The notes below the pieces were generated by a model. The model did no database searches, was not told where the DNA came from, and saw only the letters and a program-made list of their open reading frames with translations. From assembly GCA_018333715.1 (NCBI GenBank), contig JAGXSW010000069.1:1-36571 (forward strand): a stretch of DNA of 36,571 bases. Reading direction: 5' to 3'. This DNA comes from Syntrophaceae bacterium (GTDB lineage Bacteria > Desulfobacterota > BSN033 > UBA1163). How positions within the stretch are numbered: the first letter of the stretch is position 1; each line of letters opens with the position of its first letter. The position numbers were made by a program, and so were the translations under genes. Of the stretch, positions 2,603 to 36,479 are shown piece after piece.

Positions 2603-3490
2603 ATGACGGCAAAATTGATCAATGGCAATGAAGTCGCACAGCAGATTCGGGAAGAATTGAAACAGGAGGTAGCCCAGATTAAAGAGAAATACAATGTCAC
2701 GCCGGGGCTGGTGACCATCCTGGTCGGCGAAAGCCCGGCCTCCATCAGTTATGTTACGGCAAAACAAAAAACCTCCAAGGACTTAGGATTTTATTCCATT
2801 CAGGACAACCAACCTGAGAACCTCACGGAAGAGCAGTTGCTCAACCTGATCGACAAATATAATAAGGATCCGAAGATCCACGGAATCCTGGTCCAGCTTC
2901 CACTGCCCAAACACATCAATGAGACCAAAATTCTTTACGCGATTGATCCGAAGAAGGATGTGGACGGCTTTCATCCTGTCAATGTGGGAAAACTGATGAT
3001 TGGCGAGGCCGATTTCCTTCCCTGCACTCCGGCGGGCATTCAACAACTCCTGATCCGCTCCGGCGCCAAGATCGATGGCGCAGAGGTCGTTGTCGTTGGG
3101 CGGTCGAATATCGTCGGGAAGCCCATTACGAACATGCTCCTCCAGAAACAGAAAGGAGCCAACGCCACCGTCACGATTTGCCATACCGGCACAAAGGATA
3201 TGGCCTTTCATACGAAAAGGGCTGATATTCTTATTGTGGCGGCAGGTAAACCGAAGGCGGTCACAGCCGATATGGTGAAGGAAGGGGTCGTTGTCATCGA
3301 TGTGGGTGTGAACCGGATCGGAATGACTCCCGAAGGAAAGGCTAAACTCTGCGGCGACGTCGATTTCGACGGAGTCAAGGAGAAGGCGAGCGCCATCACT
3401 CCCGTCCCCGGCGGAGTGGGACCCATGACCATCACCATGCTGATGATGAATACGGTCAAGGCGGCCAAAGTGGCGGCAGGGATAAAATAG
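2603..3490 (+). CDS. folD: bifunctional methylene-THF dehydrogenase / methenyl-THF cyclohydrolase
   Basis: 295 aa. LVTILVGESPASISYV, HGILVQLPLP, VVVVGRSNIVGKP and PVPGGVGPMT are classic FolD motifs. SD aggggg lies upstream. Confidence 0.95.
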   Translation: MTAKLINGNEVAQQIREELKQEVAQIKEKYNVTPGLVTILVGESPASISYVTAKQKTSKDLGFYSIQDNQPENLTEEQLLNLIDKYNKDPKIHGILVQLPLPKHINETKILYAIDPKKDVDGFHPVNVGKLMIGEADFLPCTPAGIQQLLIRSGAKIDGAEVVVVGRSNIVGKPITNMLLQKQKGANATVTICHTGTKDMAFHTKRADILIVAAGKPKAVTADMVKEGVVVIDVGVNRIGMTPEGKAKLCGDVDFDGVKEKASAITPVPGGVGPMTITMLMMNTVKAAKVAAGIK

Positions 3491-3564
3491 TCGGATAGTC
3501 AAATAGTCGATTAGTCGTATAGTGAAAGACTAAAAGACTATGAGACTATATGACTCTAGGACTA
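3488..3564. repeat. beaded hairpin: 5 x TAGTC words (period 8) facing 5 x GACTA words (period 8)
   Basis: tagtc at 3488, 3496, 3504, 3512 and (tagtg) 3520. gacta at 3528, 3536, 3544, (gactc) 3552 and 3560. Symmetric about 3526. The first word contains the folD stop; the last ends 3 nt before ATG 3568. Confidence 0.85.
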
Positions 3565-4446: not shown

Positions 4447-4476
4447 TTGACAACCTTTTGTAAAAAGTTTTACACT
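4447..4476 (+). promoter_or_regulatory. candidate sigma70-like promoter for the acsE operon
   Basis: TTGACA (4447-4452), 18-nt spacer, TACACT (4471-4476), within a 292-nt non-coding gap. Confidence 0.3.
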
Positions 4477-5483: not shown

Positions 5484-5553
5484 GACACGAATATCACGAA
5501 TAAAAACGAATGAAACGAATATTCGTGTGATTCGTTCTCATTCGTGCCATTCG
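5484..5553. repeat. palindromic word array: 4 x ACGAAT facing 4 x ATTCGT
   Basis: acgaat at 5487, 5496, 5506 and 5515. attcgt at 5521, 5530, 5540 and 5549. Spacer lengths 3, 4, 3 are mirrored on both arms. Centre is at 5520/5521. Confidence 0.85.
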
Positions 5554-5573
5554 ATAATAAAAAGGAGGCAAGT

Positions 5574-6476
5574 ATGCAACTCAACGATTTTTTTGAACCC
5601 TATAAGGGTGAAACTAAAGAGGTCGCCATCGGACCTTCAGGTAAAGCAGTGAAACTGGGCGGCGAGCAGACCCTGCCCTTCCATGCTTTTGAAGGAAAAG
5701 AGGGAGCGCCTGTTCGATTCGCTCTGGAAGTGTTTGATGCCCCTCCCGAAGGCTGGCCGGAACACCTCCGTTCCTCTTATGCGGATGTCCTCTCGGACCC
5801 CGTGGCCTGGGCGGATAAATGCACAAACCAATACGGCGCTGACCTGATCTCCCTTTATCTATCCAGTCTGGATAGCGAGAATGCTGATCCCACAAAAATC
5901 GCCGAAAAGGTGAAAGACATTGCAGACCACATCTCCGTTCCTCTCATTGTCCTGGGGGTTGGGGATAAGGATAAGGATGCAAAAGCCCTCGTCGAAATAG
6001 CCAGGGTCTGCACGGGCAAAAATCTCCTCCTCGGCCCCCTGGTAAAAGAAAATTATGAGGAGATTGCAAAGGCCGCACTGGAGGGAGGGCACAGTATTAT
6101 TCCTCAGAGCCCTCTCGACATCAATCTCTGCAAGGAACTCAATGTGAAATTGGCCAAGTTCTTCCCGAAGGAGAGGGTCGTCATCGACCCCTTATCCGCA
6201 GCCATCGGCTATGGAATCGATTACTCCTTCTCGATTATGGAGCGGGTCAAGCAGGTGGCGGTCATTCATAATGACGAAATGATGAAGGTCCCCATGGTTG
6301 CCAATATCGGAAAGGACTGCTGGAAGACAAAGGAGGCTAAGGAAGATAAAACTCAGGGAATACTTTGGGAAGCCCTGACGGCTTTCACCCTGATTTTAGC
6401 CGGGGCAAACCTTGTGATCATGCGGCACCCGGAGAGTTTGAAACTGGTCAAAAAATTAGTTTCTGGAAAGGAGTAA
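5574..6476 (+). CDS. acsD: corrinoid Fe-S protein small subunit (ACDS delta)
   Basis: About 300 aa TIM-barrel protein next to acsE and cdhA, similar to CdhD/AcsD. SD aggagg (5564-5569) favours ATG 5574 over the ORF-track start 5544. Confidence 0.85.
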   Translation: MQLNDFFEPYKGETKEVAIGPSGKAVKLGGEQTLPFHAFEGKEGAPVRFALEVFDAPPEGWPEHLRSSYADVLSDPVAWADKCTNQYGADLISLYLSSLDSENADPTKIAEKVKDIADHISVPLIVLGVGDKDKDAKALVEIARVCTGKNLLLGPLVKENYEEIAKAALEGGHSIIPQSPLDINLCKELNVKLAKFFPKERVVIDPLSAAIGYGIDYSFSIMERVKQVAVIHNDEMMKVPMVANIGKDCWKTKEAKEDKTQGILWEALTAFTLILAGANLVIMRHPESLKLVKKLVSGKE

Positions 6477-6479
6477 CCC

Positions 6480-8783
6480 ATGAGTAAAGGAGCTGTGAAA
6501 CAAAAGGAGATCAATAAGATTATCAGGGCGGAAGATAACTGGGAACCAGTTGGTCCAACCCCTATGCCGGAAATATCCGATTTGCGACGATGGGATATGC
6601 GGCTTTTGAAGACTTATAAACCTTTTTATGCCCCCTTCTGCGACGTCTGCTGTTTCTGCACTTACGGAAAATGCGATCTCACCGAGGATAAGAAGGGCGC
6701 CTGCGGCATCAATATCGCGGGCCAGCAGGGAAGATGGGGGTTGATGTTCTCCCTGATGGGATGCTCGGCCCATGGCGCCCACGCTCGCCATCTGGTGGAC
6801 TACCTCATCGAGAAGTACGGTGAAGATTATAAGATCGATCTGGGCGGCCAGGTGGATGTGGAAGCGCCCCATATGAGGACGGTCATGGGGCTCAAGCCGG
6901 AGACGCTGGGCGATCTTAAAAAGGGGATTGAATATGTGGAGAGGGGCATCATCCATGGTGTCTCAGCCACCCATATGGGACAGGAGGGAAGCGATCTTGA
7001 TTTCGAGTCCAAATCCATGCACATCGGGATGCTCGATCATGTGGCCATGGAGGTTGCGGACATTGCCCAGACCATTGGATTCAAGTTCCCAACCTCTGTC
7101 GCTGAAACGCCTCTTTCAGGCCTGGGTTGGGGTTCGGTTGACAAAGACAAACCCGTTGTCACCTGCGTGGGACATAATGCCGCAGTAGCGACGGTGATGA
7201 TTGACCATCTGATGAAAGCGGGCATATACGATCAGGTGGAAGTCACAGGGATCTGCTGCACGTCCCATGACAATATCCGGTATTCGGACAAGGCAAAGAT
7301 CATCGGGCCCCTTTCAAAACAGATATTTTTTCTGAAGACAGGGATTGCAGATCTGGTAATGACCGACGAACAGTGCGTGCGGTGCGATATTCCTGAACTG
7401 GCAAAAGCCACGGGCAGCGCACTGATCGCCACATCCGACAAGATTAGCTATGGTCTTGATGATATGACCCACAAGGAGGTTGATGAGATTGTCCGGCTGG
7501 TCGTGGAGGAGGGCAAACAGGTCTTGATCCGTGACGTGGACAAAGCAGGAGAAGTCGCTGCCAAAGTTCTTCCACTTGTCGCTAAAAACCGGAAGGACAA
7601 GAAAGTGATTGTCACAAAGGATATGGCGCAGGAATTGGCTCAGACCTGTAAGACCTGTCAACTCTGTGACCGGGTCTGCCCCAACTTCCTGAATATCTCA
7701 GACGCCCTTGCCGATGTGCAGAAAGGGAAATTTGACCTCATGAGCGCAGTCTTTGCAAGATGCGTGGGCTGCGGAAAATGTGAGCAGGAATGCGCAAAGG
7801 AAGTGCCCATCATCAAGATCATGCAGGCGGCAGCCTCCTGGGACACCTATAATATCAGAGTTGGAAGAGGGCCGATCCAGGACGTGGAGATCAGAAAGGT
7901 GGGGGCGCCGATTGTCTTAGGGACCATTCCGGGTATTATCGCCATTGTCGGCTGCTCCAACTATCCTGAAGAGATTGAGGAAGTCGCTGAAATCGCCGAG
8001 GAGTTTGCAAAGCGGAAATATATCGTCGTCCTTTCCGGCTGTGCCGCCATGGCCGCCGGGATGAAAAAGGATGCCGAGGGAAAAACCATCTATGATAAGT
8101 ATAAACCCGAGTTTGACGCAGGCGGTGTGCTCAATGTGGGAAGCTGTGTCGCTAATGCCCATATCACCGGAGCAGCCATGAAGGTCGCCAACATCTTCGC
8201 CAAGCTGCCGCTGCGGGCTAACTACGAGGTCATTGCCGACTATATTCTGAATCGGGTAGGAGCCGTGGGTCTGGTCTGGGGCTCTTACTCCCAGAAGGCC
8301 TTTACCATTGGAACGGGATGCAATCGCATGGGCATTCCTGTTGTCCTCGGTCCCCATTCTGCGAAATACCGGAGACTCTATCTATCGAGAAAGGAAGAGG
8401 ACGACTGGACCGTTATGGACGGAAGAAAGAAGGAACTCGTCAACACCGAGGAGCCTTCTCCCGAACATCTGATGGTCGTCACTGAAAGCAAAGAGCGGGC
8501 CATGATCACCCTTGCGAGGCTCTGTATTCGGAAGAACGATACCGCCCAAGGAAGGCAGATCAAACTGAATCACTACATCTCTCTCTATAAACAGCATATG
8601 GGTTCCCTTCCCGATGATCTGCAGAACTTTGTAAGGAACGACAAGGACATACCCATCGTCTATAAGAAAGAGGTGAGTGAATATCTGAAGACAGTGGGTT
8701 GGAAACCTAAACCCCTTCTCACCTTACCCACCTTTATCGGGACATATGAAAGCAATATCCCCATCGATGCGGTGGTTAAATGA
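6480..8783 (+). CDS. cdhA: archaeal-type CO dehydrogenase catalytic subunit (ACDS alpha)
   Basis: 767 aa. N-terminal Cys cluster FCDVCCFCTYGKCDL...GACGI. Internal 2x[4Fe-4S] insertion CKTCQLCDRVCP / CVGCGKCEQEC, typical of CdhA rather than the bacterial AcsA/CooS. Confidence 0.9.
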   Translation: MSKGAVKQKEINKIIRAEDNWEPVGPTPMPEISDLRRWDMRLLKTYKPFYAPFCDVCCFCTYGKCDLTEDKKGACGINIAGQQGRWGLMFSLMGCSAHGAHARHLVDYLIEKYGEDYKIDLGGQVDVEAPHMRTVMGLKPETLGDLKKGIEYVERGIIHGVSATHMGQEGSDLDFESKSMHIGMLDHVAMEVADIAQTIGFKFPTSVAETPLSGLGWGSVDKDKPVVTCVGHNAAVATVMIDHLMKAGIYDQVEVTGICCTSHDNIRYSDKAKIIGPLSKQIFFLKTGIADLVMTDEQCVRCDIPELAKATGSALIATSDKISYGLDDMTHKEVDEIVRLVVEEGKQVLIRDVDKAGEVAAKVLPLVAKNRKDKKVIVTKDMAQELAQTCKTCQLCDRVCPNFLNISDALADVQKGKFDLMSAVFARCVGCGKCEQECAKEVPIIKIMQAAASWDTYNIRVGRGPIQDVEIRKVGAPIVLGTIPGIIAIVGCSNYPEEIEEVAEIAEEFAKRKYIVVLSGCAAMAAGMKKDAEGKTIYDKYKPEFDAGGVLNVGSCVANAHITGAAMKVANIFAKLPLRANYEVIADYILNRVGAVGLVWGSYSQKAFTIGTGCNRMGIPVVLGPHSAKYRRLYLSRKEEDDWTVMDGRKKELVNTEEPSPEHLMVVTESKERAMITLARLCIRKNDTAQGRQIKLNHYISLYKQHMGSLPDDLQNFVRNDKDIPIVYKKEVSEYLKTVGWKPKPLLTLPTFIGTYESNIPIDAVVK

Positions 8784-9490
8784 AGACACTCATCATCTAT
8801 GACGGAGATTACGGCAAACGGTTCTGGGAAAACATCAGCCGTCATGCTCCAAAACAGTGGGAGGTCCAGGGGTTCCACTATTCTAAAAAGATCCCCCGTT
8901 TTGTCGAAGAGCTTTCCGATTACCTTCCGGGGGACCTCCCCAACTGCGATCTCCTGATCTCCGTTCAGGAGCAACCGGTCCTGGCTGAAATGATCCCCCT
9001 GTTTATAAAAAAGATGGGCGCCAGGGCTGTCATCGCTCCGATTGACAGCAAGGCTTACTTGACTTCAGGTTTGGCAAGACAACTTAAGAAGAAGCTCGAA
9101 AAAGATGGGGTTGAGCTCATCCACCCGATGACCTTTTGCACATTATCGGAGAAGATGTCAAAGAATGAGCTCATTCTGGAGTTTGTCAAATACTTTGGCA
9201 AACCGGAAGTGGAAATTGAAATAGAAAACGAAAAGGTAAAAAAGGTCACGGTCATCAAGGAAGCCCCCTGCGGGAACACGAGGTATGTCGCTGAACATCT
9301 CATCGGAACCCACATCAAGGATGCGGTGGAAAAGGCCGGCATCCTCCACCATAACCATCCCTGCATGGCCGCCATGGTGATGGATGCGGAAATTGGCGAC
9401 ACCCTGATGCATCATGCGGGGTTACAGATCAAGCTGGCCGTGGATGAAGCCATCAAAAAAACAGTGATTCGTGCCTGCACGCCGAAGTGA
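8780..9490 (+). CDS. uncharacterised Cys/His-rich protein inserted between cdhA and cdhB (possibly DUF166/COG1810-like)
   Basis: ATGA start/stop overlap with cdhA. 236 aa with motifs APCGNTRY, HHNHPCMAAM and LMHHAG. The N-terminus MKTLIIYDGDYGKRF reminds me of DUF166 proteins (recollection, unverified). Confidence 0.6.
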   Translation: MKTLIIYDGDYGKRFWENISRHAPKQWEVQGFHYSKKIPRFVEELSDYLPGDLPNCDLLISVQEQPVLAEMIPLFIKKMGARAVIAPIDSKAYLTSGLARQLKKKLEKDGVELIHPMTFCTLSEKMSKNELILEFVKYFGKPEVEIEIENEKVKKVTVIKEAPCGNTRYVAEHLIGTHIKDAVEKAGILHHNHPCMAAMVMDAEIGDTLMHHAGLQIKLAVDEAIKKTVIRACTPK

Positions 9491-9587
9491 CGGCGTTCCG
9501 GCACGCAGGCGTGAATCGTGATTCGTAACATCTTCAACGATTCACCCTTCACCCTTCACAACTCACAAAAGAAATGGAGGAGAAAAA

Positions 9588-10124
9588 ATGAGCTTACCAT
9601 ACTATCACGTCAACGTATTCACAGGGATTAAGTCGTGCAAGGTGATGGAGGATCCTCAAACCCTTGCCAAGATCGCCAAAAAGGCCCAGCGACCCCTTCT
9701 TGTTCTGGGGCCTAAATGCGGCGAAGTGAATCTCGGAGGAAAACAGCTTCTTGATTATGGCATCGAGATTGCGAAAACCCTTGGCGCTGCCATCTGTGCA
9801 ACAGCAAACATCAAGAAGAAGCTCCTGGAGGCGGGGGTGACGCCTGATTCCACTTACGATGCGGTCGAGATCATCAACCATCTTAAAGACTCTGATTGGA
9901 AGGGTGTTAAAAAAGAGGGAAACCATGATTTTGTCATGTTTCTGGGAATCAGACCGGATCTGGGAAATCAGGGATTATCCACACTGAAGCATTTCGCCGG
10001 CCATCTCAAGACCGCCACCCTGTGTAAATATGTCTTTCCCAACGCCAACTTCTCCCTTCCCAATCTGAAGGATGACAAGTGGAAAGAATATCTTGACAAT
10101 ATGATCCAGGGTTTAAAATCTTAA
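9588..10124 (+). CDS. cdhB: ACDS epsilon subunit
   Basis: 178 aa. The size, the position between cdhA and cdhC, and a Rossmann-like pattern (LLVLGPK...FVMFLGI) fit CdhB. SD ggagg. Confidence 0.7.
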   Translation: MSLPYYHVNVFTGIKSCKVMEDPQTLAKIAKKAQRPLLVLGPKCGEVNLGGKQLLDYGIEIAKTLGAAICATANIKKKLLEAGVTPDSTYDAVEIINHLKDSDWKGVKKEGNHDFVMFLGIRPDLGNQGLSTLKHFAGHLKTATLCKYVFPNANFSLPNLKDDKWKEYLDNMIQGLKS

Positions 10125-10162
10125 ATCTGAAAATAAAGAAGGAATAAAGAAAGGAGGAAAAC

Positions 10163-11365
10163 ATGTTTTCTGTCGATGTGGGACCTCAGTATGAAGGGGA
10201 AACCGTAAGAAAGGAAGATTTTCAAATTGAGTTCGGAGGGCCGAAGCATAAGTTCAAAGCGGAGCTGGTGACCGTCAAACCTGCCGCTGAAGTGGAAGAC
10301 GAAAAGATCGAGATCATCGGAAAGGACATCAAGGATTTTGAAGAGGGAGCGTCCGTTCCCATCTTCATTAAGATCGCTGTAGCCGGCGAGCAGCTCGAAA
10401 AAGATATGGAGCCCGTCTTTGAGCGCCGGGTCCACATGTATGTCAATTACATCGAGGGCTTCTGGCACATGGCTCAGAGGGACGAGATCTGGATGAGAAT
10501 CCATAAAGACAGTTTTAAAAAGGGCCTCAACTCCCTGGACGAGATCGGAAGGATTCTCGCAATGCTCTATAAAAATGAGCTTTCGATCATTGAAAAGATC
10601 CAGATCACTTTTATCACCGATCCTGAAAAGGTGGAAAAAGAAGTCCTTGAGGCAAGAGAGGTCTACAAGGCAAGGGATGACCGGCTGAAGGGAATCACCG
10701 AAGAAGAAGTGGATGAGTTCTATGGATGTTCTCTCTGCCAATCCTTTGCGCCCACCCATGTCTGCGTTGTCACTCCGGAGAGGGTTTCCCTCTGCGGAGC
10801 GATCAACTGGTTTGATGGAAGGGCCGCTTATAAGATGGACCCCGAAGGACCCCAGTTTGCCATCAAGAAAGGAGACCTTCTGGACCCGGAGAAATTTATC
10901 TACTCCGGAGTCAATGCCATCGTGGCAGAGAAGTCCCTTGGCAGCAATAGTGTATTCTGCCTCCACAGCGCACTGGAAAGCCCTCACACCTCTTGCGGAT
11001 GTTTCCAGGCCATCCTTTTTTATATCCCGGAGGTGGATGCCTTTGGTGTGGTTCACCGCGACTTTATGGGCGAGACCGTCACCGGTCAAAAATTTTCAGG
11101 CATCGCTGGAGAGGCCTCCGGTGGAAGGCAGAACGAGGGAATGCTCGGCCTGGCCATCTCTTACATGAAGTCAAAGAAATTCATTAAGACCGATGGAGGG
11201 TTAAAAAGGGTCGTCTGGCTCCCAAAAGGCATTAAAGAACAGATCAAAGATGTCCTCGATGAGGCAGGCATGTATGACAAAATTGCAACGGAAGAAGATG
11301 TGAAGAATGTGGATCAATTAACAGAATACATGAATCGAGTCGGACATCCCTGGGTAACAGGTTAA
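10163..11365 (+). CDS. cdhC: acetyl-CoA synthase catalytic subunit, short archaeal type (ACDS beta)
   Basis: A-cluster motifs CSLCQSFAPTHVCVVTPERVSLCG and SCGCF. At 400 aa it lacks the N-terminal domain of bacterial AcsB. Confidence 0.9.
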   Translation: MFSVDVGPQYEGETVRKEDFQIEFGGPKHKFKAELVTVKPAAEVEDEKIEIIGKDIKDFEEGASVPIFIKIAVAGEQLEKDMEPVFERRVHMYVNYIEGFWHMAQRDEIWMRIHKDSFKKGLNSLDEIGRILAMLYKNELSIIEKIQITFITDPEKVEKEVLEAREVYKARDDRLKGITEEEVDEFYGCSLCQSFAPTHVCVVTPERVSLCGAINWFDGRAAYKMDPEGPQFAIKKGDLLDPEKFIYSGVNAIVAEKSLGSNSVFCLHSALESPHTSCGCFQAILFYIPEVDAFGVVHRDFMGETVTGQKFSGIAGEASGGRQNEGMLGLAISYMKSKKFIKTDGGLKRVVWLPKGIKEQIKDVLDEAGMYDKIATEEDVKNVDQLTEYMNRVGHPWVTG

Positions 11366-11480
11366 TGGCCAATGACCAGTTTTCAATGATCAATTAGCAA
11401 TGGTCAATGATTGGTCTGTAAGAATCGGTTATTAAAATAATCAATGGTTATTGTCAATTGACCATTGATTATTGATTATT
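11366..11480. repeat. word-rich palindromic spacer (caatg/cattg, ggtcaat/attgacc)
   Basis: Includes a 10-bp perfect stem aatcaatggt (11439-11448) / accattgatt (11461-11470). Ends at the acsC SD. Confidence 0.6.
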
Positions 11481-11495
11481 TGAGAGGAGGATCTC

Positions 11496-12866
11496 ATGGC
11501 GCTTAAGGCTTCGGATATTCAGAAAAAACTGCCGGATGGCGGCAAAAAGAATTGCAAAGAATGCGGGTTCCCCACCTGTTTTGCCTTTGCAATGAAACTG
11601 GCATCGGGCGCAGTGACTGTGGATAAGTGTCCCTATCTGCCGGGCGAGATTAGAACAGAACTCGAAGAGGCATTGGCTCCACCCATCAGGCTGGTCACCA
11701 TCGGTGTGGGGGAAAATGCCATGAGTATTGGCGAGGAAGAGGTCATCTACCGACATGAAAAAACCTTTTACAGACCTTCCGGGATCGCCATCCTCATCAC
11801 CGACAAGGAAGATGAGGGAACCATCTCCGCTAAGATCAACAAGCTAAAGACACTCCAGTTTGACCGGGTGGGTCAGAAGCTGAAAGCGAATCTCTTCGCT
11901 TTGAAGTATGCGGGAAATGCTGAGAAGTATCTGGGCCTGGTAAAGAGGGCGGCCGCAGAAGGGTTTCCCATTATTTTAATCTGTGAAGACCTGGACACCC
12001 TGTTTAAAGCAAGGGATCTGATTGCAGATAAAAATCCCCTTCTCTACCCTATCACAAAAGAGAATCTGGATGCCGCTCTTCCGAAGATCAAGGCAAAACC
12101 TACGCCCATCGGAGTGAAGACCGGCGGAATTGAAGAAATCGTTCCCATCACCAAACGGCTCAAGGAAGAAGGCATTCTGGACATCGTCCTCGATCCTTCC
12201 CCTAAATCGTTGAAAGAGATGATCAGGGACTACACCCTTATCCGGAGGGCCGCCCTCAAGAAAACATTCCGGCCTCTGGGCTACCCCATCCTTTCTCTGC
12301 CCTGTATGCTCGCGGAAAATAAGATGGAGGAAATCCTTCTGGCATCGGCAGGAGTGATCAAGTATGCAGGCATCGTCGTCCTCTCCGATTTTGAAAAAGA
12401 GATGCTCTATCCTCTCCTTGTCTTAAGGCAAAACATCTTTACCGATCCGAGGGTTCCCCTTGCGGTGGAGCAGAAAATTTATGAAATCGGAACGGTCTCT
12501 ACCGAATCACCGGTGCTTCTGACGACCAATTTTGCGTTGACCTATTTTGCAGTGGCCAGTGAAATCGAAAATAGTAAAATTCCTGCCTATCTCTGCGTAA
12601 AAGATACGGAAGGTTTATGTGTGCTTGCAGCCTGGTCAACGGGAAAGTTTAGCGGAGACACGGCCGGGCCATTTCTCAAGAAAATAGGAGTCGGAGATAA
12701 AGTTAAGAATAAGAGGGTCATCATCCCTGGATTTGCCGCAAGGATCAAGGGAGAACTTGAAGAGGAATTACAGGGCTGGGAAGTGATTGTGGGTCCCCGT
12801 GAGGCAAGCGATCTGCCCGCCTTTCTTCCCCAGATGATTGAAAAATGGAAGAGTCAGAGCAAATAG
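11496..12866 (+). CDS. acsC: corrinoid Fe-S protein large subunit (ACDS gamma)
   Basis: N-terminal [4Fe-4S] motif CKECGFPTCFAFAMKLASG...DKCP. 456 aa. SD gaggagg. Confidence 0.9.
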   Translation: MALKASDIQKKLPDGGKKNCKECGFPTCFAFAMKLASGAVTVDKCPYLPGEIRTELEEALAPPIRLVTIGVGENAMSIGEEEVIYRHEKTFYRPSGIAILITDKEDEGTISAKINKLKTLQFDRVGQKLKANLFALKYAGNAEKYLGLVKRAAAEGFPIILICEDLDTLFKARDLIADKNPLLYPITKENLDAALPKIKAKPTPIGVKTGGIEEIVPITKRLKEEGILDIVLDPSPKSLKEMIRDYTLIRRAALKKTFRPLGYPILSLPCMLAENKMEEILLASAGVIKYAGIVVLSDFEKEMLYPLLVLRQNIFTDPRVPLAVEQKIYEIGTVSTESPVLLTTNFALTYFAVASEIENSKIPAYLCVKDTEGLCVLAAWSTGKFSGDTAGPFLKKIGVGDKVKNKRVIIPGFAARIKGELEEELQGWEVIVGPREASDLPAFLPQMIEKWKSQSK

Positions 12867-13315: not shown

Positions 13316-13361
13316 GCAAGGTTAATGGGTTAGGGTTATGAAGCCCGTTTCGCATATTATT

Positions 13362-13454
13362 GGTCTTATAGTCTTATGGTCGTATAGTCGTATAGTTTAG
13401 AACAAAAAGGTTAATTGACTATTAGACTATCTGACTATAAGACTAACTGACTTA
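13362..13454. repeat. beaded hairpin of the TAGTC/GACTA family
   Basis: Left-arm words (ggtc, atagtc, atggtc, atagtc, atagtt) at 13362-13397 with period 8. Right-arm words (gactat x3, gactaa, gactta) at 13417-13454 with period 8. Ends 2 nt before ATG 13457. Confidence 0.8.
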
Positions 13455-13456
13455 AG

Positions 13457-15340
13457 ATGACCTATTCACAAATCAGAGATCAGGCAATGGAATTCCGCCG
13501 GGAGAAAATGGCCGGCGGGACGCCCAAGATCTTTATCGGGTGCGCCACCTGTGGGGTATCGGTCGGCGCGCTTGAGGTGGCGGAGGCATTTGAAAAAGAG
13601 CTCATCAAACATAACCTCCAGGGAGAGATTATCAAACTGGGATGCCTGGGAATTTGTTTTGCCGAGCCCCTCGTCTATATCACGAAGCAAGGCAACCCCA
13701 CGATCTGCTATAAAAATCTGAAACCGGAAGACGCTTTTAGGATTGTTTACAACTACCTGATTGAAGATGATCCCTGTTTCGATCTGGCCATTGGGACCCT
13801 GGAGATAAAAGAAGGGGGTATTCCCTATATCCCGGAACTTGAAAGATTTGAAAAGGAGGAAAGAATCATCCTCCGGTATGCGGGACTAATCGACCCTGAA
13901 GAGATCAGGGATTATATCGCCCTGGGCGGCTATGAAGCGCTGGACAAAGCCCTATCCATGGGAAAAGAAGAGATCATCGGCGAGGTGAAGCGATCAGGGT
14001 TGAGGGGACTGGGAGGCGCCGGCTTTTCTGCAGGGATGAAATGGGAGGAATGTCTCAAGGCAAAGGAACATCCCAAATATATTGTGTGCAATGGAGATGA
14101 AGGCGATCCAGGCGCCTTCATGGACCGGGTCGTTCTTGAGAGCTCTCCTCACCAGGTCATCGAAGGAATGGCCATTGCTGGCTATTCACTCGACGCCCAC
14201 CAGGGCTACATCTACATCCGTTCAGAATATCCTCTTGCCATCCAAAAGGTCAATCATGCCTTAATGCAGGCCAGGGAGCATCGTCTGCTTGGGAAAGATA
14301 TTTTAGGAAAAGGGTTTGACTTCGACATAAAGGTTTATCCTGGAGCAGGAGCCTTTGTATGCGGTGAGTCCACCGCCCTGATGTATTCGATCGAGGGAAG
14401 AAGGCCCATGCCAAGGGTCAGACCGCCTCATTCTGTTGAGAAGGGCCTCTTTCGTAAACCCACTCTCTTAAATAATGTCAAAACCTTCTCCTGTATCCCC
14501 CCTATCCTGCTGAAGGGGGCGGAGTGGTTTTCAAAAATTGGGACCCTCCATTCGAAAGGGACCACCGTCTTCGCCCTGGCAGGAAAGATCAAGGAATCGG
14601 GTCTGGCTGAGGTGAGGATGGGAACCACCTTAAAAGAGGTCATTTATCAGATCGGAGGAGGGATTAAAGAGGATAAAAGGCTGAAGGCGATCCAGGTGGG
14701 AGGGCCTTCAGGCGGATGTATTCCCGCTCAATATATCGATACGCCGGTTGACTTCGACTCCTTAAAATTTCTTGGTTCGATGATGGGCTCCGGCGGACTG
14801 ATCGCAATGGATGATGAGACCTGCATGGTCGATATGGCCAAATACTTTCTCACTTTCATGCAGAGCGAGAGCTGCGGAAAGTGCACCTTCTGCCGGATAG
14901 GAACCAAGCATCTTCTTCTCCTGTTAGAGGAGATCACAAAGGGGGAAGGGACCCTGGATCATCTCCGCCTTCTCAAAGAACTTTCAGAGGAGATCGTTGA
15001 AGGCTCTCTGTGCGGCCTGGGGCAAACCGCTCCAAATCCCATCCTCACCACCCTGAGGTATTTCGAGAGCGAGTATATTGCCCATGTCGTTGAAAAGAGA
15101 TGTTCGGCTCTGGTCTGCCGCGATCTGATCTCCTATCTGATCGTTTATGATAAGTGCTGGAGAAGCTGTGAACACTGCGTCCTCAAGTGTCCGGCAGAGG
15201 CTATTCATCCGGATGAGAAGAACATCAAGATCATCGACCAAACCAAATGTGTGAAGTGCGGGATCTGTCTGGAGGTCTGCCCCAGGGAATATAATGCTGT
15301 GATCAAGGTCTCACCAAAGATAGGTGTAGCTCAGGATTAA
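13457..15340 (+). CDS. NuoF/HydB-like NADH- and FMN-binding Fe-S flavoprotein
   Basis: N-terminal thioredoxin-like 2Fe-2S domain, RGLGGAGFSAG, CNGDEGDPGAF, ESCGKCTFCR, and C-terminal ferredoxin motifs CWRSCEHCVLKCP / CVKCGICLEVCP. Confidence 0.9.
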   Translation: MTYSQIRDQAMEFRREKMAGGTPKIFIGCATCGVSVGALEVAEAFEKELIKHNLQGEIIKLGCLGICFAEPLVYITKQGNPTICYKNLKPEDAFRIVYNYLIEDDPCFDLAIGTLEIKEGGIPYIPELERFEKEERIILRYAGLIDPEEIRDYIALGGYEALDKALSMGKEEIIGEVKRSGLRGLGGAGFSAGMKWEECLKAKEHPKYIVCNGDEGDPGAFMDRVVLESSPHQVIEGMAIAGYSLDAHQGYIYIRSEYPLAIQKVNHALMQAREHRLLGKDILGKGFDFDIKVYPGAGAFVCGESTALMYSIEGRRPMPRVRPPHSVEKGLFRKPTLLNNVKTFSCIPPILLKGAEWFSKIGTLHSKGTTVFALAGKIKESGLAEVRMGTTLKEVIYQIGGGIKEDKRLKAIQVGGPSGGCIPAQYIDTPVDFDSLKFLGSMMGSGGLIAMDDETCMVDMAKYFLTFMQSESCGKCTFCRIGTKHLLLLLEEITKGEGTLDHLRLLKELSEEIVEGSLCGLGQTAPNPILTTLRYFESEYIAHVVEKRCSALVCRDLISYLIVYDKCWRSCEHCVLKCPAEAIHPDEKNIKIIDQTKCVKCGICLEVCPREYNAVIKVSPKIGVAQD

Positions 15341-15346
15341 AAGAAA

Positions 15347-15410
15347 TGTAGCGTCGGCATTTATTGCCGACGAAAAGGATCATTCGCCCTCAATAAATGA
15401 GGGCGCTACA
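15347..15410. repeat. modular two-hairpin REP-like unit (outer stem tgtagcg/cgctaca)
   Basis: Inner hairpins are tcggca-tttat-tgccga and gccctca-ataaa-tgagggc. The reverse complement shares its first 27 nt with the copy at 25554-25610. Confidence 0.8.
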
Positions 15411-15413: not shown

Positions 15414-15486
15414 CTTATCGTCGTATAGTCAGATAGTCTTTTAGTCAATGACTATAAGACTACGAGACTATAAGACGATATGACTA
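15414..15486. repeat. beaded hairpin of the TAGTC/GACTA family
   Basis: Left words atcgtc, atagtc, atagtc, ttagtc (period 8), 3-nt loop aat, right words gactat, gactac, gactat, gacgat, gacta (period 8). The variant pair atCgtc/gacGat is compensatory. Confidence 0.85.
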
Positions 15487-17700: not shown

Positions 17701-19416
17701 ATGGCTCGGATCGGTATATTCATCGATGGGATGGGAGGTTCGATCCCTGCCCCCTTTCGGGAAAAGATCGTTTCTGTCATCCGGGGACTCCCGGAGATTG
17801 CTTTCTCTGTTGAGGAAGAGAACCTCGCCTCTCCCGGGGCATTGCAAAGGATGGCTGAACATCTGAAGGCAGAGGAGGTGGATAGGGCGGTCATCCTCGG
17901 AGGAAGCCCCAAACTCTATGAGACTTCATTTAATAAATTTGGATATCCTGTTCTTCTCAATCCCTATCTCCTCACAGTGGCCAATCTGAAGGAACAGACC
18001 CTTCAGGCCGTGGCCAATGAAGAGGAGGCCGTTGAAAAAGCCCGAAAGATGATGATCAAAGCGATTCATCTGGCCTCTTCCTCCGGCCCCATTGAGTCCC
18101 GATCCCTTCCATTGACGCCCCAAACCCTGGTCATCGGAGGAGGAATTACAGGGATCGCCATCGCTCTTGCCCTGGCGCGATCAGGAATCCAGGTCTATCT
18201 CCTGGAGAAGGGGAAACATCTGGGCGGTAAGGCTTTGGAACTTCGCAGGTTTTATAACCGGCCCGAAGAAGTTCAGAAGTGGGTGGAGGAGAAGGTCTCC
18301 GAAATCAGCCGGAATTCCCGTATCACCGTGATCAGTGAAACAGAGCTGAAGCGGCTCGATGGCCATCTGGGCCGCTTCCAGGCAACAGTCCGGAAGGCGA
18401 ACGGAACGGAAGCGGTTCTCTCTCCCTCTGCCATCGTCGTCGCAACAGGATATGAAGTGGAACGAAACCGGAAGGGAATTTATGGCCACAGGAGTTTTAT
18501 CTCCTTTGCTGAAATGGAAACGCTTCTGGCCGAAAACGAGATCCCTTCTCTTCTCAGAAATGGGAAAAGGGTTGAATCGGTCGCCTTCCTTCTCGGTGAA
18601 GTCAATGGGGATGTGAAGATCGATTCGATCAATGCGGTCAAACAGAGCCTTCTCCTTCAGGAGGCATTCCAATGTCAGACAGTCATTCTCTGCAAGGACC
18701 TGAAGGTCTCTTCAGATGGAATGGAGCGGCTCTACCGGAGGGCGAGAGAGCGAGGCGCCCTCTTTATCAAATTTGAGGAGCCTCCGAAGCTCTCCATCGT
18801 CAACGGTCAGATTCAGGTCGATGTAAAGGACACGTCGGCCATTCGCAAGGAGGATGAATGGCCTCTCTCCATTCTTTCGGATCTCATTGTCCTGAGCGAT
18901 GCTCTCATCCCGAACCCTGAGACTGAAAATCTTTGCAGGATTCTCGGCCTCCATCGGGGAAACCGTGGATTTTTCATGGAGGATAATCCCCAGCTCCTCC
19001 GGGTGAGATCGAATCGAAGGGGAATCTTTGTGGCCGGGGGATGCCGGTTCCCGCAGGAAGTTTCGGAAACCCTGAACGAGGCAGGGGCAACGGCGCAGGA
19101 GGTGATCGCCCTTCTTTCAGGCGGGATTTATCCTTACGATCTTTCCGTCGCAGAGGTCGATCCCGAGAAATGCGCAGTCTGTCTCACCTGTCCCAGGCTC
19201 TGTCCTCATTCCGCGATCACTGTGGAGAAGTATGCGGAGAAGAATATCTATATCACTCCGGGAATCGGAGAAGGGGTGAAGTGGGGAGCCGCCAGAGTTG
19301 ACCCCGTTGCCTGTTATGGATGCGGAATCTGTGTCGGCGAATGCCCTGCAAAAGCGATCACGCTTCGCCATCAGCCCGATGAATTGATCTATGCCCAGAT
19401 GAACCTTAGTGATTGA
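17701..19416 (+). CDS. hdrA: HdrA-like FAD/Fe-S protein, module 2 of a split tandem HdrA
   Basis: ATG directly follows TAA (17698-17703). ARIGIFIDGMGGSI aligns with PRIGVFVCHCGINI of the fused paralogs. VIGGGITGIAIA. C-terminal CAVCLTCPRLCP / CYGCGICVGECP. Confidence 0.8.
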   Translation: MARIGIFIDGMGGSIPAPFREKIVSVIRGLPEIAFSVEEENLASPGALQRMAEHLKAEEVDRAVILGGSPKLYETSFNKFGYPVLLNPYLLTVANLKEQTLQAVANEEEAVEKARKMMIKAIHLASSSGPIESRSLPLTPQTLVIGGGITGIAIALALARSGIQVYLLEKGKHLGGKALELRRFYNRPEEVQKWVEEKVSEISRNSRITVISETELKRLDGHLGRFQATVRKANGTEAVLSPSAIVVATGYEVERNRKGIYGHRSFISFAEMETLLAENEIPSLLRNGKRVESVAFLLGEVNGDVKIDSINAVKQSLLLQEAFQCQTVILCKDLKVSSDGMERLYRRARERGALFIKFEEPPKLSIVNGQIQVDVKDTSAIRKEDEWPLSILSDLIVLSDALIPNPETENLCRILGLHRGNRGFFMEDNPQLLRVRSNRRGIFVAGGCRFPQEVSETLNEAGATAQEVIALLSGGIYPYDLSVAEVDPEKCAVCLTCPRLCPHSAITVEKYAEKNIYITPGIGEGVKWGAARVDPVACYGCGICVGECPAKAITLRHQPDELIYAQMNLSD

Positions 19417-19418
19417 TA

Positions 19419-19448
19419 GGGAGATGGGGAGATGGGGAGATGGGGAGA
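19419..19448. repeat. tandem 8-nt repeat GGGGAGAT (about 3.75 units)
   Basis: Direct reading, 2 nt after the hdrA stop. A complementary atctcccc lies at 19592-19599. Confidence 0.85.
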
Positions 19449-19588
19449 AAATTAATAACCAAACACCAAATTCCAATCACCAAATAAGCACCAATGTCCA
19501 AAATCCAAAATTTCAAACAAAACCATTTAGATCATTGGTAATTGGAATTTATTAACAGTATCATAATTGAATTGACATAAACATTGGA

Positions 19589-19662
19589 AAATCTCCCCTA
19601 CCCCTCTTTGCCAAAGAGGGGTAATTCCTCCCTTAGAAAAAGGGAGGTCAGGAGGGATTTTA
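19589..19662. repeat. purine/pyrimidine-tract multi-hairpin unit (short member of the aaaatccctcccc family)
   Basis: Outer pairing aaaatctcccct / aggagggatttt. Inner hairpins cccctcttt-gcc-aaagagggg and cctccctt-agaaa-aagggagg. Confidence 0.75.
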
Positions 19663-20102: not shown

Positions 20103-20236
20103 GGGAATAATGGAATGGTGGAAAGTTGGAATATTGGGAATACAAACAAATACAAAATATGAACGAAAGTCGCCTAAAGGAAGCGAAGCTTTCTTTACCC
20201 ATGATTCCAGTATTCCAATATTCCATTCTTCCATGT
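20103..20236. repeat. GGAAT/ATTCC word hairpin with a central small hairpin
   Basis: Left arm ggaat-type words at 20104, 20112, 20119, 20127 and 20136. Right arm attcc words within 20198-20236. Centre hairpin gaaag-tcgc...gcga-ag-ctttc. Confidence 0.7.
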
Positions 20237-21846: not shown

Positions 21847-21902
21847 CGAAGAAATTTATAAAATATCAATGCAAATTGGAAAATTGGCATTGCAAAGTTG
21901 AC

Positions 21903-22028
21903 GGTCTCGTAAAATGTCCCGATCTGTCACCCTGAACTCGTTTCAGGGTCTCGTAAGTTCTTGATTTTATTAGATGCTGAAACAAGTTCAGCATGACATT
22001 TTTCCTGTTTCTTGACTTTTTACGAGAC
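21903..22028. mobile_element. MITE-like element with 12-bp terminal inverted repeats ggtctcgtaaaa/ttttacgagacc
   Basis: TIRs at 21903-21914 and 22017-22028. Internal hairpins accctgaa-ctcg-tttcagggt and atgctgaa-acaa-gttcagcat. No coding capacity. Confidence 0.6.
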
Positions 22029-22096
22029 CATCAAAGTTAGCATTGTGTTAAATCACTGCTAATTGATCAATTTGAAATGATCTTTGGAGGAAGCCC

Positions 22097-24940: not shown

Positions 24941-25480
24941 ATGAATTCAAATTCTCTTCTCTCGGAAGTGGCTCAGGTCAGCGGCGAAAAAGTGCAGGCT
25001 TGCTATCAGTGTCAAAAATGTTCGGCAGGCTGTCCGGTCGCCTATGCCATGGACATCCTTCCCAATCAGGTGCTTCGTCACATTCAATATGACCACAGGG
25101 AAAAAGTCCTCGGCTCAAAAACGATCTGGATCTGCGCATCCTGTTATGCCTGCAGCGTTCGTTGTCCCAATAATATCGATATTGCCCGGATCATGGATAC
25201 CCTGAGGGAGATTGCCAATCGATCGGGGATCAAACCGGGGGAAAAGGATGTCCCGGTCTTTCATTCCGTCTTCCTCGATACCATCAAATCGAAAGGCCGG
25301 ATCCACGAGCTGAGCCTTATCCTCCAGTTTAAAATAAAAACGAGAGACTTCTTCAAGGATGCTTCCCTGGGATTGAAGATGTACCGTAAAGGGAAGATCA
25401 AACTCTTTCCGTCCAAGTTCGGAGGGGGAAAAGAGATCAAGGAGATCTTCAACTCATTTGAGAAAAGGGAAGTGAAGTGA
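24941..25480 (+). CDS. hdrC: heterodisulfide reductase subunit C-like (2x[4Fe-4S])
   Basis: CYQCQKCSAGCPV and CASCYACSVRCPNNID. 179 aa. Confidence 0.85.
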   Translation: MNSNSLLSEVAQVSGEKVQACYQCQKCSAGCPVAYAMDILPNQVLRHIQYDHREKVLGSKTIWICASCYACSVRCPNNIDIARIMDTLREIANRSGIKPGEKDVPVFHSVFLDTIKSKGRIHELSLILQFKIKTRDFFKDASLGLKMYRKGKIKLFPSKFGGGKEIKEIFNSFEKREVK

Positions 25481-25485
25481 TGAAT

Positions 25486-25712
25486 CACCAAATTCCAAAC
25501 ACCAATAACCAAAATTTAATCCCCTCAGTTATGGGGAAGATTTTTATAATATATGTAGCGCCCTCATTTATTGAGGGCGGAGTCCGTCCCGACTAAATCG
25601 GGACGCTACAAAAAGAGTGTTTGGTTATTGGAGCTTATTTGGAGCTTGCCTGCGCCTGCCCTGCCTACCGGCAGGCAGGCGCAGGCAGGGAATTTGGTGA
25701 TTGGAATTTCAA
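25486..25712. repeat. nested palindrome complex between hdrC and hdrB
   Basis: Outer ATTGG-word arms (25486-25515 versus 25619-25631 plus 25690-25710) enclose a two-hairpin REP unit (25554-25610) and a GC-rich palindrome gcctgcgcctgcc...ggcaggcgcaggc (about 25648-25689). Confidence 0.75.
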
Positions 25713-26586: not shown

Positions 26587-26654
26587 CGAGAAAAAATCCG
26601 AAGCACGAAACAAATTCGAATGTTCGAAAATAAAAATGTCCCAAACAAAAAGTT

Positions 26655-26800
26655 TTGTAACATTTTAGCTATTTGAAAAAACTTCATAAAATCCCTCCCC
26701 ACCTCCCTTTGCCCTCCGGGTCAGAGACCGCTCTGGGTCGGAGACCAAAGGGAGGAGAAATACTTCCCTCTTTGAAAAAGGGGGACTGAGGGGGATTTAG
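26655..26800. repeat. copy of the aaaatccctcccc multi-hairpin element (left end homologous to 32542-32600)
   Basis: About 56 nt, ttgtaaca...cttcataaaatccctccccacctcccttt, are near-identical to 32542-32597. An extra nested hairpin sits in the first loop. No right TIR is seen. Confidence 0.75.
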
Positions 26801-26872
26801 GATTTGTTTCGAATTGGTCCTAAGAGGACGCTTCGCCCGATATTCGGATTTCGGATTTAAGTGAGGGAAATA

Positions 26873-31417: not shown

Positions 31418-31499
31418 TGAAAGATCCATTGCAAAATGAGCATTGCAAAATTAACAATGCAAAATGGATCTATTATTGCTGGGTAAATGGAATTTAAAA

Positions 31500-31670
31500 T
31501 GCACCTTTTCCGTCATGCCGGACCTGAGGAGCCTGCCCCGTACTTGATACGGGGGCATCCAGACGTCGTCCCGACGAAAGTCGGGAACCATTTCAAAGAC
31601 TTGGTCCCGGTTTTCACCGGGAACCCTGGATTCCGGCTGGAGTTTATCCCGATGAAAATCGGGGCCGGAA
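31500..31670. repeat. cluster of REP-like hairpins
   Basis: ccccgta-cttga-tacgggg (31536-31554), tcccgac-gaaa-gtcggga (31569-31587), tcccgg-ttttca-ccggga (31605-31622), ttccggc...gccggaa carrying a nested hairpin (31631-31670). Confidence 0.75.
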
Positions 31671-31781
31671 TGAAGACCTTTTTGAAAACTGTTAGTTTAT
31701 AAACAGACTCTAAATAACCATTATGAATTGCTAATTGCTAATTTTGCAATTTGCAATGATTATTAAATTAAGGCGCTGAAA

Positions 31782-32541: not shown

Positions 32542-32732
32542 TTGTAACACTTCAGCGCTTTGAAAAAACTTCATAAAATCCCTCCCCACCTCCCTTTTCC
32601 AAAGGGAGGAGAAATGCTTCCCCCTTTGTAATCTTTTTCCTGTCAAAGACAGGCAAAAGGGGGATTGAGGGGGATTTAGGAAATGACGATATCTTGATAA
32701 GACCTCTTTTTCAAAAAACTAAAGTGTTACAA
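32542..32732. mobile_element. MITE-like element (191 nt) with ~27-nt imperfect TIRs around a purine/pyrimidine multi-hairpin core
   Basis: Left end ttgtaacacttcagcgctttgaaaaa. The reverse complement of the right end is ttgtaacactttagttttttgaaaaa. The core matches 26680-26800. Confidence 0.7.
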
Positions 32733-32786
32733 ATAATTTAGTTCATCGTTCATAGTTCATTGTCCATCGTCCGGAGTTTTTAACCT

Positions 32787-36419: not shown

Positions 36420-36479
36420 AGAGTGGAGAGTTAGATTCTTAACTACTTTCTACTTTCTACTTTCCACATTCCACCTTCG
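36404..36479. repeat. AGTAG/CTACT-type word hairpin overlapping the mvhD stop
   Basis: Outer pair cgaaggt (36404-36410) / accttcg (36473-36479). Left arm gtagaaagtagagagtggagag, right arm ctactttctactttctactttccac. Confidence 0.7.

Follow-up and report, generated by a model that had tools for sequence, protein, structure and literature searches.

Facing TAGTC and GACTA arrays between genes of a CODH/ACS cluster are a family of dispersed 8-nt intergenic repeats

Three intercistronic gaps in a 36,571-nt contig of a Syntrophaceae bacterium (JAGXSW010000069.1, assembly GCA_018333715.1; this whole stretch is called the window hereafter) are occupied by facing arrays of the words TAGTC and GACTA, repeated with a period of exactly 8 nt. 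They lie between genes of a carbon monoxide dehydrogenase/acetyl-CoA synthase (CODH/ACS) cluster. We find that these arrays are one family of dispersed short-period intergenic repeats, the counterpart in Desulfobacterota and Chloroflexota of the short tandemly repeated repetitive (STRR) elements of cyanobacteria. Their anatomy, position, polarity, word constraint and turnover are observed directly in the sequences compared here. As to what they do, we propose that they may act in the mRNA as hairpins over the start of the next gene, and we weigh this model below against other explanations.

Anatomy of the arrays

All three arrays lie on the forward strand, in the gaps 3488–3564, 13361–13453 and 15418–15486, and each comprises four to five TAGTC-type words followed by five GACTA-type words at the exact 8-nt period. 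In locus 1, between folD and cooC, the 5′ arm (3488–3524) carries TAGTC at 3488, 3496, 3504 and 3512 and TAGTG at 3520; the loop (3525–3527) reads AAA, or has 5 nt once a G·G mismatch is counted; and the 3′ arm (3528–3564) carries GACTA at 3528, 3536, 3544 and 3560 and GACTC at 3552. Locus 2, before the nuoF-like gene, opens with a 5′ arm (13361–13397) of TGGTC at 13361 and 13377, TAGTC at 13369 and 13385 and TAGTT at 13393, continues with a 19-nt loop (13398–13416) and closes with a 3′ arm (13417–13453) of GACTA at 13417, 13425, 13433 and 13441 and GACTT at 13449. Locus 3, before the nuoG-like gene, has a 5′ arm (15418–15446) of TCGTC at 15418 and TAGTC at 15426, 15434 and 15442, an AAT loop (15447–15449) and a 3′ arm (15450–15486) of GACTA at 15450, 15458, 15466 and 15482, the last of them unpaired, and GACGA at 15474, which pairs with TCGTC. 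A search for TAGTCNNNTAGTC with at most one mismatch returns 23 matches in the window versus 0.55 ± 0.86 in shuffled sequences, and all 23 fall inside the three gaps.

Within the unit, core identity is 0.95 versus about 0.57 for the spacers, and five of the eight positions are conserved. In the hairpin register of the three loci, 64 of 70 word positions form Watson–Crick pairs versus 13 of 33 spacer positions (Fisher's test, 5e-8), the latter against a shuffled-spacer mean of 11.0 (P = 0.27). Since the spacers pair only at chance level, the two arms are no simple inverted duplication. A preliminary description of this DNA had argued as much, and our reading bears out its account of locus 1 (word order, 8-nt spacing, symmetry about 3526), of words that are complementary between spacers that are not, and of the recurrence of the word family before the nuoF-like and nuoG-like genes, where its coordinates were off by an immaterial 1–4 nt. 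Its picture of 5-bp helices separated by 3×3 internal loops holds as a rule but not throughout: some spacers of loci 2 and 3 (TTA/TAA) do pair, and RNAfold joins certain beads into longer helices. Predicted RNA minimum free energies are −28.9 kcal/mol for locus 1 (z-score −4.8), −39.4 kcal/mol for locus 2 (z-score −6.5) and −30.7 kcal/mol for locus 3 (z-score −7.0).

Anchoring to stop and start codons

In locus 1, folD ends within the first word, whose TAG (3488–3490) is its stop codon; a first-word TAG serves likewise in the related contig L126. In L126 and L129 (11865–11899), the nuoF open reading frame (ORF) traverses the whole 5′ arm of the TAGTC hairpin until the fifth word, whose in-frame TAG terminates it, so that the arm codes for the final ~11 residues of NuoF. 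With one TAG in every 8 nt, three words are enough to place a stop in each reading frame. At the other end, the last GACTA-type word lies 3 nt before the ATG of cooC (3568), 3 nt before that of the nuoF-like gene (13457) and 12 nt before that of the nuoG-like gene (15499). A Shine–Dalgarno (SD)-like AGGA (3558–3561) sits within the 3′ arm of locus 1, and the SD sequence AAGGA follows the 3′ arm of locus 3, before the ATG at 15499. In an unbiased set, made up of the window and the relatives fetched by NuoF homology, every array lies in a gap or overlaps only the last codons, and a check for arrays inside genes, raised in the preliminary description, found none beyond this overlap.

The same placement recurs in other genomes. 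We searched a single genome of each species for TAGTC repeated three times at period 8 and obtained at least 120 loci; what we report of them, here and below, holds among the matches listed. In Chloroflexota, where an array reads GACUA on the sense strand of the neighboring gene, it ends 1–29 nt before that gene's start, and the position of the right arm at a downstream start or SD, first proposed from the window, is seen at more than 20 of these arrays. For ten downstream proteins, full-length Pfam matches beginning at residues 1–32 validate the starts. The ten genes are functionally unrelated: they encode an amino-acid kinase, a CoaD-type cytidylyltransferase, YbaB, Cas1, phosphofructokinase, an ABC ATPase, HisA, ribosomal protein L1, CoaBC and an ABC-3 permease. 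An SD-like GGAG is frequently made by the last spacer and word together (L092, L051, L082, L015), and arrays with UAGUC in the sense strand lie directly after stop codons in L019, L073 and L106. In L015, an Anaerolineales metagenome-assembled genome (MAG), a GACTA array (261–281) is followed by AGGAG directly upstream of cas1.

By Pfam, the genes flanking the three loci encode FolD, a CooC-type ATPase and NuoE-like, NuoF-like and NuoG-like proteins within the CODH/ACS cluster. This operon-like cluster, entirely on the forward strand, also includes RACo, AcsE-like, CdhA/B/C/D/E, MetF/MetV and Hdr/Mvh-like genes. The CODH/ACS genes at 5544–12866 are of the archaeal Cdh type, with an epsilon subunit (CO_dh, PF02552) and two CdhD-family proteins, on a contig whose nearest named relatives are Deltaproteobacteria/Desulfobacterota MAGs. 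The NuoF-like protein is 93% identical to one of 'Deltaproteobacteria bacterium RBG_16_49_23' and 83% identical to a 'Desulfobacterota bacterium' protein. For cooC, the ORF of greatest length begins within the array, at an ATG at 3550, and the family-typical start (MKIAVSGKGG) lies at 3568. The collection's call for the NuoF-like protein of the window is 610 aa long, 17 codons (13457–13507) shorter than the ORF from 13457. An exact look-up of the window's NuoF protein returned no record.

Evolution at orthologous gaps

We compared the window with 80 NuoF-relative loci, 12 of them at 81–94% identity, together with two contigs from exact look-ups. In the nuoF–nuoG gap, the window, L126 and L129 have both arms, and the TCGTC/GACGA variants stay opposite each other in all of them. 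Across the right arms upstream of the nuoG-like gene in L125, L126, L127 and L129, none of 25 word columns varies versus 5 of 12 spacer columns (P = 0.002), and upstream of coaD two Anaerolineae (L039, L016) have arrays with the same words and changed spacers. The preliminary claim that constraint falls on the words themselves is supported by both comparisons. The spacers escape this constraint, a pattern that uniform neutral decay of a slippage product cannot produce.

The element itself turns over. In the nuoF–nuoG gap of L122 and L205 only the last 1.5 units are left, after a deletion between short TTAT/CTAT homologies. In the folD–cooC gap, L126 shares the window's TAGTC hairpin, longer by one unit and with most spacers unchanged; L121 (306–375), L203 (330–385) and L205 (235–320) have a direct (GAGTTCN)n array of 3–4 units beside the SD and no TAGTC hairpin. 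The CooC of L121 is 95.6% identical to that of the window, yet the element in its gap differs. The words AGTTC and AGTC may be related. The (GAGTTCN)n array of L121 and L205 is split in its middle by an inserted GC-rich hairpin.

In the nuoE–nuoF gap, the TAGTC hairpin is present in the window and in no relative; the relatives carry GGTTAC/GTAACC, GGTTA/TAACC, GTTCAT/ATGAAC or CCCTCC/GGGAGG hairpins. With at least five unrelated word sets, this gap folds strongly in nine of the ten relatives folded (z −3.0 to −6.2); the short gap of L130 (60 nt) folds more weakly (z −2.3). The element is thus swapped or lost among relatives with 93–95% identical proteins, and at the same gaps these relatives carry other elements or none, so that any role of the arrays, for which the preliminary description had considered the tuning of individual cistrons, is not gene-specific. 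Given this loss in close relatives, any function must be dispensable or replaceable.

Distribution in other genomes

About half of the matches are Chloroflexota, mostly Anaerolineae MAGs, in which the convergent array pair with variable spacers recurs. Outside Chloroflexota, many matches are simply microsatellites of an exact 8-mer in which TAGTC happens to occur. The apparent conservation of TAGTC across phyla is partly produced by the query, because the scan selected that word, and we do not claim TAGTC as a special word spanning phyla. Period-7 arrays of many words, which the query did not select, are abundant as well at the Chloroflexota loci (14 per 100 kb), and within one arm of a Chloroflexota array the spacers are frequently alike.

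The arms follow the order TAGTC to GACTA in 27 cases and the reverse order in one (binomial, 2e-7). Helix stability cannot be the source of this polarity, as either order would give an identical duplex. What is read must be the strand sense of the words or where they lie relative to stops and starts. Loop lengths span 0–159 nt, without mod-8 phasing, and the arms most often have 5+5 units, as expected of a hairpin and not of a phased protein filament on duplex DNA. We rejected a phage or mobile origin, since only two of 2.9 million viral contigs in IMG/VR match the hairpin of three TAGTC and two GACTA words (L201, 7673–7737; L202, 11107–11170). Carriers of long period-8 arrays often come from filamentous groups: many Anaerolineae, L002, L038, L053 and L062 (Saprospiraceae/Lewinella) and L020, L045 and L052 (Cyanobacteria). 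This pattern echoes the Beggiatoaceae, cyanobacterial and Bacteroidetes range of the TAACTGA repeats treated below, and may be coincidence or sampling.

Periodic-word arrays as a habit of the genome

The TAGTC arrays had been described at three loci. They prove to be one family among the many 7–8-nt periodic inverted arrays of the window. Tandem Repeats Finder and direct reading show that nearly all gaps of the window carry inverted arrays of some 7–9-nt periodic word, usually running from just past the upstream stop codon to just short of the next SD. Sites with inverted or direct arrays are found at 452–472, 2510–2540, 5488–5548, 9510–9565, 11383–11480, 13320–13340, 19415–19540, 20104–20234, 21860–22080, 25480–25700, 26590–26860, 31427–31757, 32741–32770 and 36410–36470. 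Closest in design is the array at 20104–20234 on the forward strand, which fills the gap between an FlpD-like gene and the next gene with five GGAAT(N3) units, a 55-nt centre and five ATTCC(N3) units, the 5+3 architecture of the TAGTC arrays with another word. Other inverted arrays are built from ACGAAT/ATTCGT (5488–5548), CAATGA/ATTGAT (11383–11480), CCAAA/TTTGG (19458–19540 and 25480–25700) and GAAAGTA/CTACTTT (36410–36470); GATGGGGA (19415–19448) and GTTCATC (32741–32770) form further periodic arrays, and TTCGAA and CATTGCAAAATGAA are among the other periodic words of these gaps.

In a census of all 5-mer words for arrays of periods 6–10, the lineage has arrays only at periods 7 and 8 and none at 6, 9 or 10. 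For periods 7 and 8, respectively, the densities are 13.7 and 24.6 per 100 kb in the window, 6.7 and 8.1 in close relatives (L121–L132), and 3.2 and 0.5 in distant NuoF loci (L133–L200). GACTA/TAGTC is the commonest period-8 word of this Desulfobacterota-like lineage.

Other kinds of element share the gaps. Two doublets of inverted 25-nt hairpins (15348–15409 and 25555–25609), each starting with GTAGCG (for example GTAGCGTCGGCATTTATTGCCGACG and GTAGCGCCCTCATTTATTGAGGGCG), resemble doublets of repetitive extragenic palindromes (REPs), known as REPINs: they have a 5′ GTAG and two inverted REPs, and fit the sequence definition of REP/REPIN. One such doublet lies between the nuoF stop codon and the TAGTC array in the window, L122, L125, L127 and L205 and is absent from L126 and L129. 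Three copies of a GC-rich palindromic element (AAAATCCCTCCCCACCTCCCTTT...GGGAGG...) occur in the window (19590–19661, 26688–26790 and 32575–32680), and more lie at other gaps in relatives, with L123 and L203 carrying it both upstream and downstream of nuoF; it resembles a miniature inverted-repeat transposable element (MITE) and is nested within periodic-word arms. The 293-nt cooC–acsE gap contains GC-rich hairpins and no periodic-word array, and holds the region's best sigma-70-like promoter match (4447–4476; TTGACA, 18 nt, TACACT; 10/12). This gap is a possible operon boundary.

Relation to known repeats

The class of short-period dispersed intergenic repeats has already been described. The STRR hairpins between hupS and hupL of filamentous cyanobacteria have been proposed to stabilize transcripts or couple translation, their function being unknown (PMC2670836). 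Like the TAGTC arrays, STRRs are dispersed families of very short tandem intergenic units whose inverted arrays can form hairpins between cistrons, and they vary between relatives with the structure kept. However, the STRR unit is described as a plain tandem of 7 bp, whereas the TAGTC period is exactly 8 at all three loci; the TAGTC unit is a conserved 5-nt core with a free 3-nt spacer and not a near-identical heptamer; the arms have a fixed polarity, with anchoring at stop and start codons; and the hosts are a Desulfobacterota-like lineage and Chloroflexota, not filamentous cyanobacteria.

The TAACTGA repeats of marine Beggiatoaceae, some Cyanobacteria and Bacteroidetes are exact heptamers in 169 direct sets and one indirect set (MacGregor 2015, PMC4679880), for which a translational role was proposed, not shown. 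Both kinds of array are found in forward orientation a few nucleotides from a start codon, overlapping the ribosome-binding site, upstream of unrelated genes, and both are patchily distributed across phyla. The TAGTC arrays differ in their word, their period of 8 and their variable spacers, and 27 of them have a facing inverted arm that usually starts at the upstream stop codon. TAACTGA itself occurs once in the window, by overlap, at about 13445–13451. Dispersed heptamer satellites, (GATAGRA)n, are known from Chloroflexus aurantiacus (PMC6749651), and heptamer-rich long simple sequence repeats (LSSRs) were described as slippage products by Mrazek (2007), in the summary given in PMC4679880. 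These too show a lineage-specific excess of 5–11-nt tandem units, one unit at many loci and a presumed slippage origin, but they are described as direct, near-exact satellites, with no core/spacer structure, inverted pairing or stop/start anchoring reported.

Periodic words are also read by proteins. Arrays bound by ribbon-helix-helix (RHH) proteins include the ACTC boxes of ParG with 4-bp spacers, the omega heptads and the 8-bp metboxes of MetJ. The TAGTC arrays similarly present contiguous 8-bp boxes, direct within an arm and inverted between arms, with only the core conserved. RHH arrays, in contrast, lie at promoters or plasmid partition sites beside the gene of their binder; the TAGTC arrays are intra-operonic and next to many unrelated genes, their arms are not in phase, and no RHH gene is present among the window genes scanned. 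HutP and TRAP bind RNA targets in which UAG or GAG triplets recur along one arm of a regulatory hairpin, and the TAGTC hairpin likewise has periodic UAG-containing words in its 5′ part. These two proteins set a precedent for control of folding by a protein that recognizes periodic words; but their triplets are spaced by 2–4 nt (period 5–7) versus 5 nt (period 8) here, and HutP and TRAP act on single specific operons in Firmicutes. REPs are imperfect palindromes of 20–40 nt, conserved over their full length, with a 5′ GTAG and a cognate REP-associated tyrosine transposase (RAYT). The TAGTC arrays are likewise strain-variable intergenic palindromes between convergent or co-directional genes; they share only a 5-nt word, have a tandem substructure, and are not REPs.

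To our knowledge, short dispersed tandem repeats (STRR, TAACTGA and heptamer LSSRs) have been known for decades in a few, often filamentous, groups, and no function has been demonstrated for them. The preliminary view that the motif class is undescribed therefore needs to be narrowed, related classes being known (PMC2670836, PMC4679880, PMC6749651); it stands, within the literature searched, for the exact inverted 5+3 architecture. In the literature we found no description of an 8-nt unit that joins a conserved 5-nt core to a free 3-nt spacer, a fixed TAGTC-to-GACTA polarity and stop-to-start anchoring, and no report of such arrays in Desulfobacterota-like and Anaerolineae genomes. What appears to be new in the TAGTC arrays is their 5+3 architecture, polarity and anchoring.

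Mechanism and alternative explanations

Searches for familiar signals returned nothing specific at the arrays. Rfam gives no match across the whole window at the gathering threshold, and a permissive Rfam search of the loci yields only noise (E of about 0.9 or more: Phage_DGR at E = 0.88, miRNA and snoRNA models). A promoter scan shows no excess (18 versus 13.5 ± 3.5 in shuffled sequences), with a single weak 9/12 sigma-70 match inside locus 1; for sigma-70 promoters, sought as −35 and −10 hexamers with a 16–18-nt spacer, the arrays carry no specific signal. Nor are they Rho-independent terminators, which have a GC-rich stem and a T-run: the scan finds no intrinsic terminator at the arrays, whose stems are AT-rich with no T tail. 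As far as we know the anti-SD sequence of the 16S rRNA 3′ end (the host rRNA lies outside the window), GACUA does not match it.

Of the explanations weighed here we rank first, as a tentative model that is possible rather than probable, one in which the arrays are slippage-grown, cis-acting mRNA hairpins that mask the downstream initiation region and are opened by terminating ribosomes. Arrays would grow, shrink and be replaced through unit-wise slippage and deletion across the palindrome, which would account for their fast turnover. The convergent pair, spanning the gap from the upstream stop codon to the downstream ribosome-binding region, would be transcribed in the polycistronic mRNA and fold into a weak, multi-register hairpin of 5-bp helices and 3×3 internal loops. 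Its 3′ arm, (GACUA-N3)n, would be the translation-initiation region of the downstream cistron, weakly masked by the 5′ arm, (UAGUC-N3)n, with UAG in all three frames. In the predicted fold, the 3′ arm lies at −4 to −40 from the start and the upstream stop codon lies in the first helix. As the 5′ arm begins at or contains that stop codon, a ribosome terminating in or at it would melt the basal helices that mask the SD and start, and the translation of the cistron that follows would thereby be coupled or tuned. In addition, the hairpin may shield mRNA segments from RNases. Such a role would be the one long put forward for the STRR hairpins between hupS and hupL (PMC2670836), and would come near that suggested for the TAACTGA repeats (PMC4679880). 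The strong fold of the nuoE–nuoF gap despite unrelated words speaks for this model, as it indicates structure kept while sequence is replaced. Further points in its favor are the folding z-scores of the three loci, the placement of the arrays between stops and starts, their polarity and unphased loops, the invariant word columns, the TCGTC/GACGA variants that remain paired and the lack of promoter-like or terminator-like signals. The commonest word variants (TGGTC, TAGTT) keep G·U pairs, and among sense-oriented TAGTC-hairpin variants about 24 are of G·U type versus 11 of A·C type (P ~0.04), a ratio that is only suggestive, as a simple ORF caller left many hairpins unoriented and some were oriented by hand.

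Several observations weigh against this RNA hairpin model. Compensatory word changes between arms number 5 versus a permutation null of 3.1 ± 1.3, which is not significant. G·T and A·C oppositions are equally frequent over all window hairpins (37 to 37), so there is no general strand-specific RNA signature. In the nuoF–nuoG gap of L125 and L127, four to five intact right-arm words persist with a left arm of ~9 nt, and many Chloroflexota arrays are single-armed. That words persist with the partner arm nearly gone, together with the strict polarity, means that pairing alone is insufficient. Finally, the element is missing at the same gap in close relatives, both at folD–cooC (L121, L203, L205) and at nuoF–nuoG (L122, L205).

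The arrays may have no function for the cell, being by-products of lineage-specific 7–8-nt slippage and palindrome formation, or selfish palindromic repeats, tolerated in gaps, with a stop-to-start placement that simply mirrors compact operons; we regard this as somewhat unlikely. It fits the rapid gain, loss and replacement at orthologous gaps of 93–95% relatives, the differing unit numbers of orthologues, the palindrome deleted between TTAT/CTAT homologies in L122 and L205, and the many word families confined to periods 7 and 8. The alike spacers within Chloroflexota arms are as expected of recent unit duplication, G·T equals A·C in the window hairpins, TAG in every frame would bar the 5′ arm from coding sequence, the downstream genes are functionally incoherent, and slippage is the origin given for heptamer-rich LSSRs (Mrazek 2007, as summarized in PMC4679880). 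Neutral decay, however, should strike words and spacers alike, whereas the words are ~95% identical and the spacers near random, and between orthologues 0 of 25 word versus 5 of 12 spacer columns vary. The 27-to-1 polarity and tight start-codon anchoring would need an extra cause, and the gap stays structured even after its sequence has been replaced. A mobile origin in the form of miniature transposable elements, whose terminal inverted repeats are arrays of binding words for a transposase encoded elsewhere, seems very improbable. It would suit the inverted-array architecture and fixed polarity, the presence of one family at three gaps of one operon, the displacement of a GGTTA hairpin resident at 13320–13350, and the REPIN-like and MITE-like elements in the same gaps. 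But the copies have only the 5-nt word in common, with no common internal sequence, spacers or defined ends, and their unit numbers vary; 5 bp is very short for a transposase site; the empty-like site of L122/L205 shows microhomology and no target-site duplication; arrays are nearly absent from viral contigs (2 matches); and no transposase gene occurs among the window genes examined. With three copies that share only the word and no duplication at the L122/L205 site, we do not assign the arrays to the MITE class.

It is unlikely, in our estimate, that the words are recognition units for a sequence-specific trans-acting factor, with the hairpin secondary. The factor could be an RNA-binding protein or the ribosome/S1 reading (GACUA-N3)n in the initiation region, as proposed for the TAACTGA repeats; an oligomer reading the UAG-containing words of the 5′ arm in the manner of HutP or TRAP; or an RHH-type DNA binder that coats direct and inverted 7–8-bp boxes like ParG, omega and MetJ. 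Word identity kept where the pairing partner is lacking (L125, L127 and many single-arm arrays that end at starts), words conserved while spacers drift, a polarity of 27 to 1 that helix stability leaves unexplained, and the same word and architecture in two phyla all favor such a factor. The 8-bp period is like that of RHH operator arrays. A similar argument has been made for forward-oriented TAACTGA repeats upstream of starts (PMC4679880). On the other side, about ten word families in the window have the same type of array, and each would need its own factor; the two arms lack phasing; the arrays are intra-operonic, with any promoter-like site upstream of them; no gene for a candidate protein is linked to them; the sharing of TAGTC across phyla is partly ascertainment, many matches outside Chloroflexota being plain 8-mer microsatellites; and the arrays are lost at orthologous sites in near relatives. 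In a bolder form, which we doubt still more, the TAGTC/GACUA words would be the modular operator of one such factor in Anaerolineae and the Desulfobacterota lineage, perhaps spread by horizontal transfer, and would form a dispersed post-transcriptional regulon at stops and starts. That factor could be an RNA-binding translational regulator, a specialized ribosome interaction or an RHH-like DNA binder, and the other word families would then be parallel systems or decayed relatives.

Implications

The arrays matter for annotation, because they supply stop codons, extend or truncate gene ends and mislead start-codon calling, as with the ATG at 3550. Their core/spacer unit, strict polarity, anchoring at both stop and start codons and occurrence in two phyla make hypotheses on short dispersed repeats testable. 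If a word-reading factor exists, the arrays would represent a new kind of dispersed regulon. If, as in the hairpin model, they couple or tune neighboring cistrons, they would offer a general means, quick to evolve, of setting the stoichiometry of an operon's products, in this case the enzymes of the Wood–Ljungdahl pathway.

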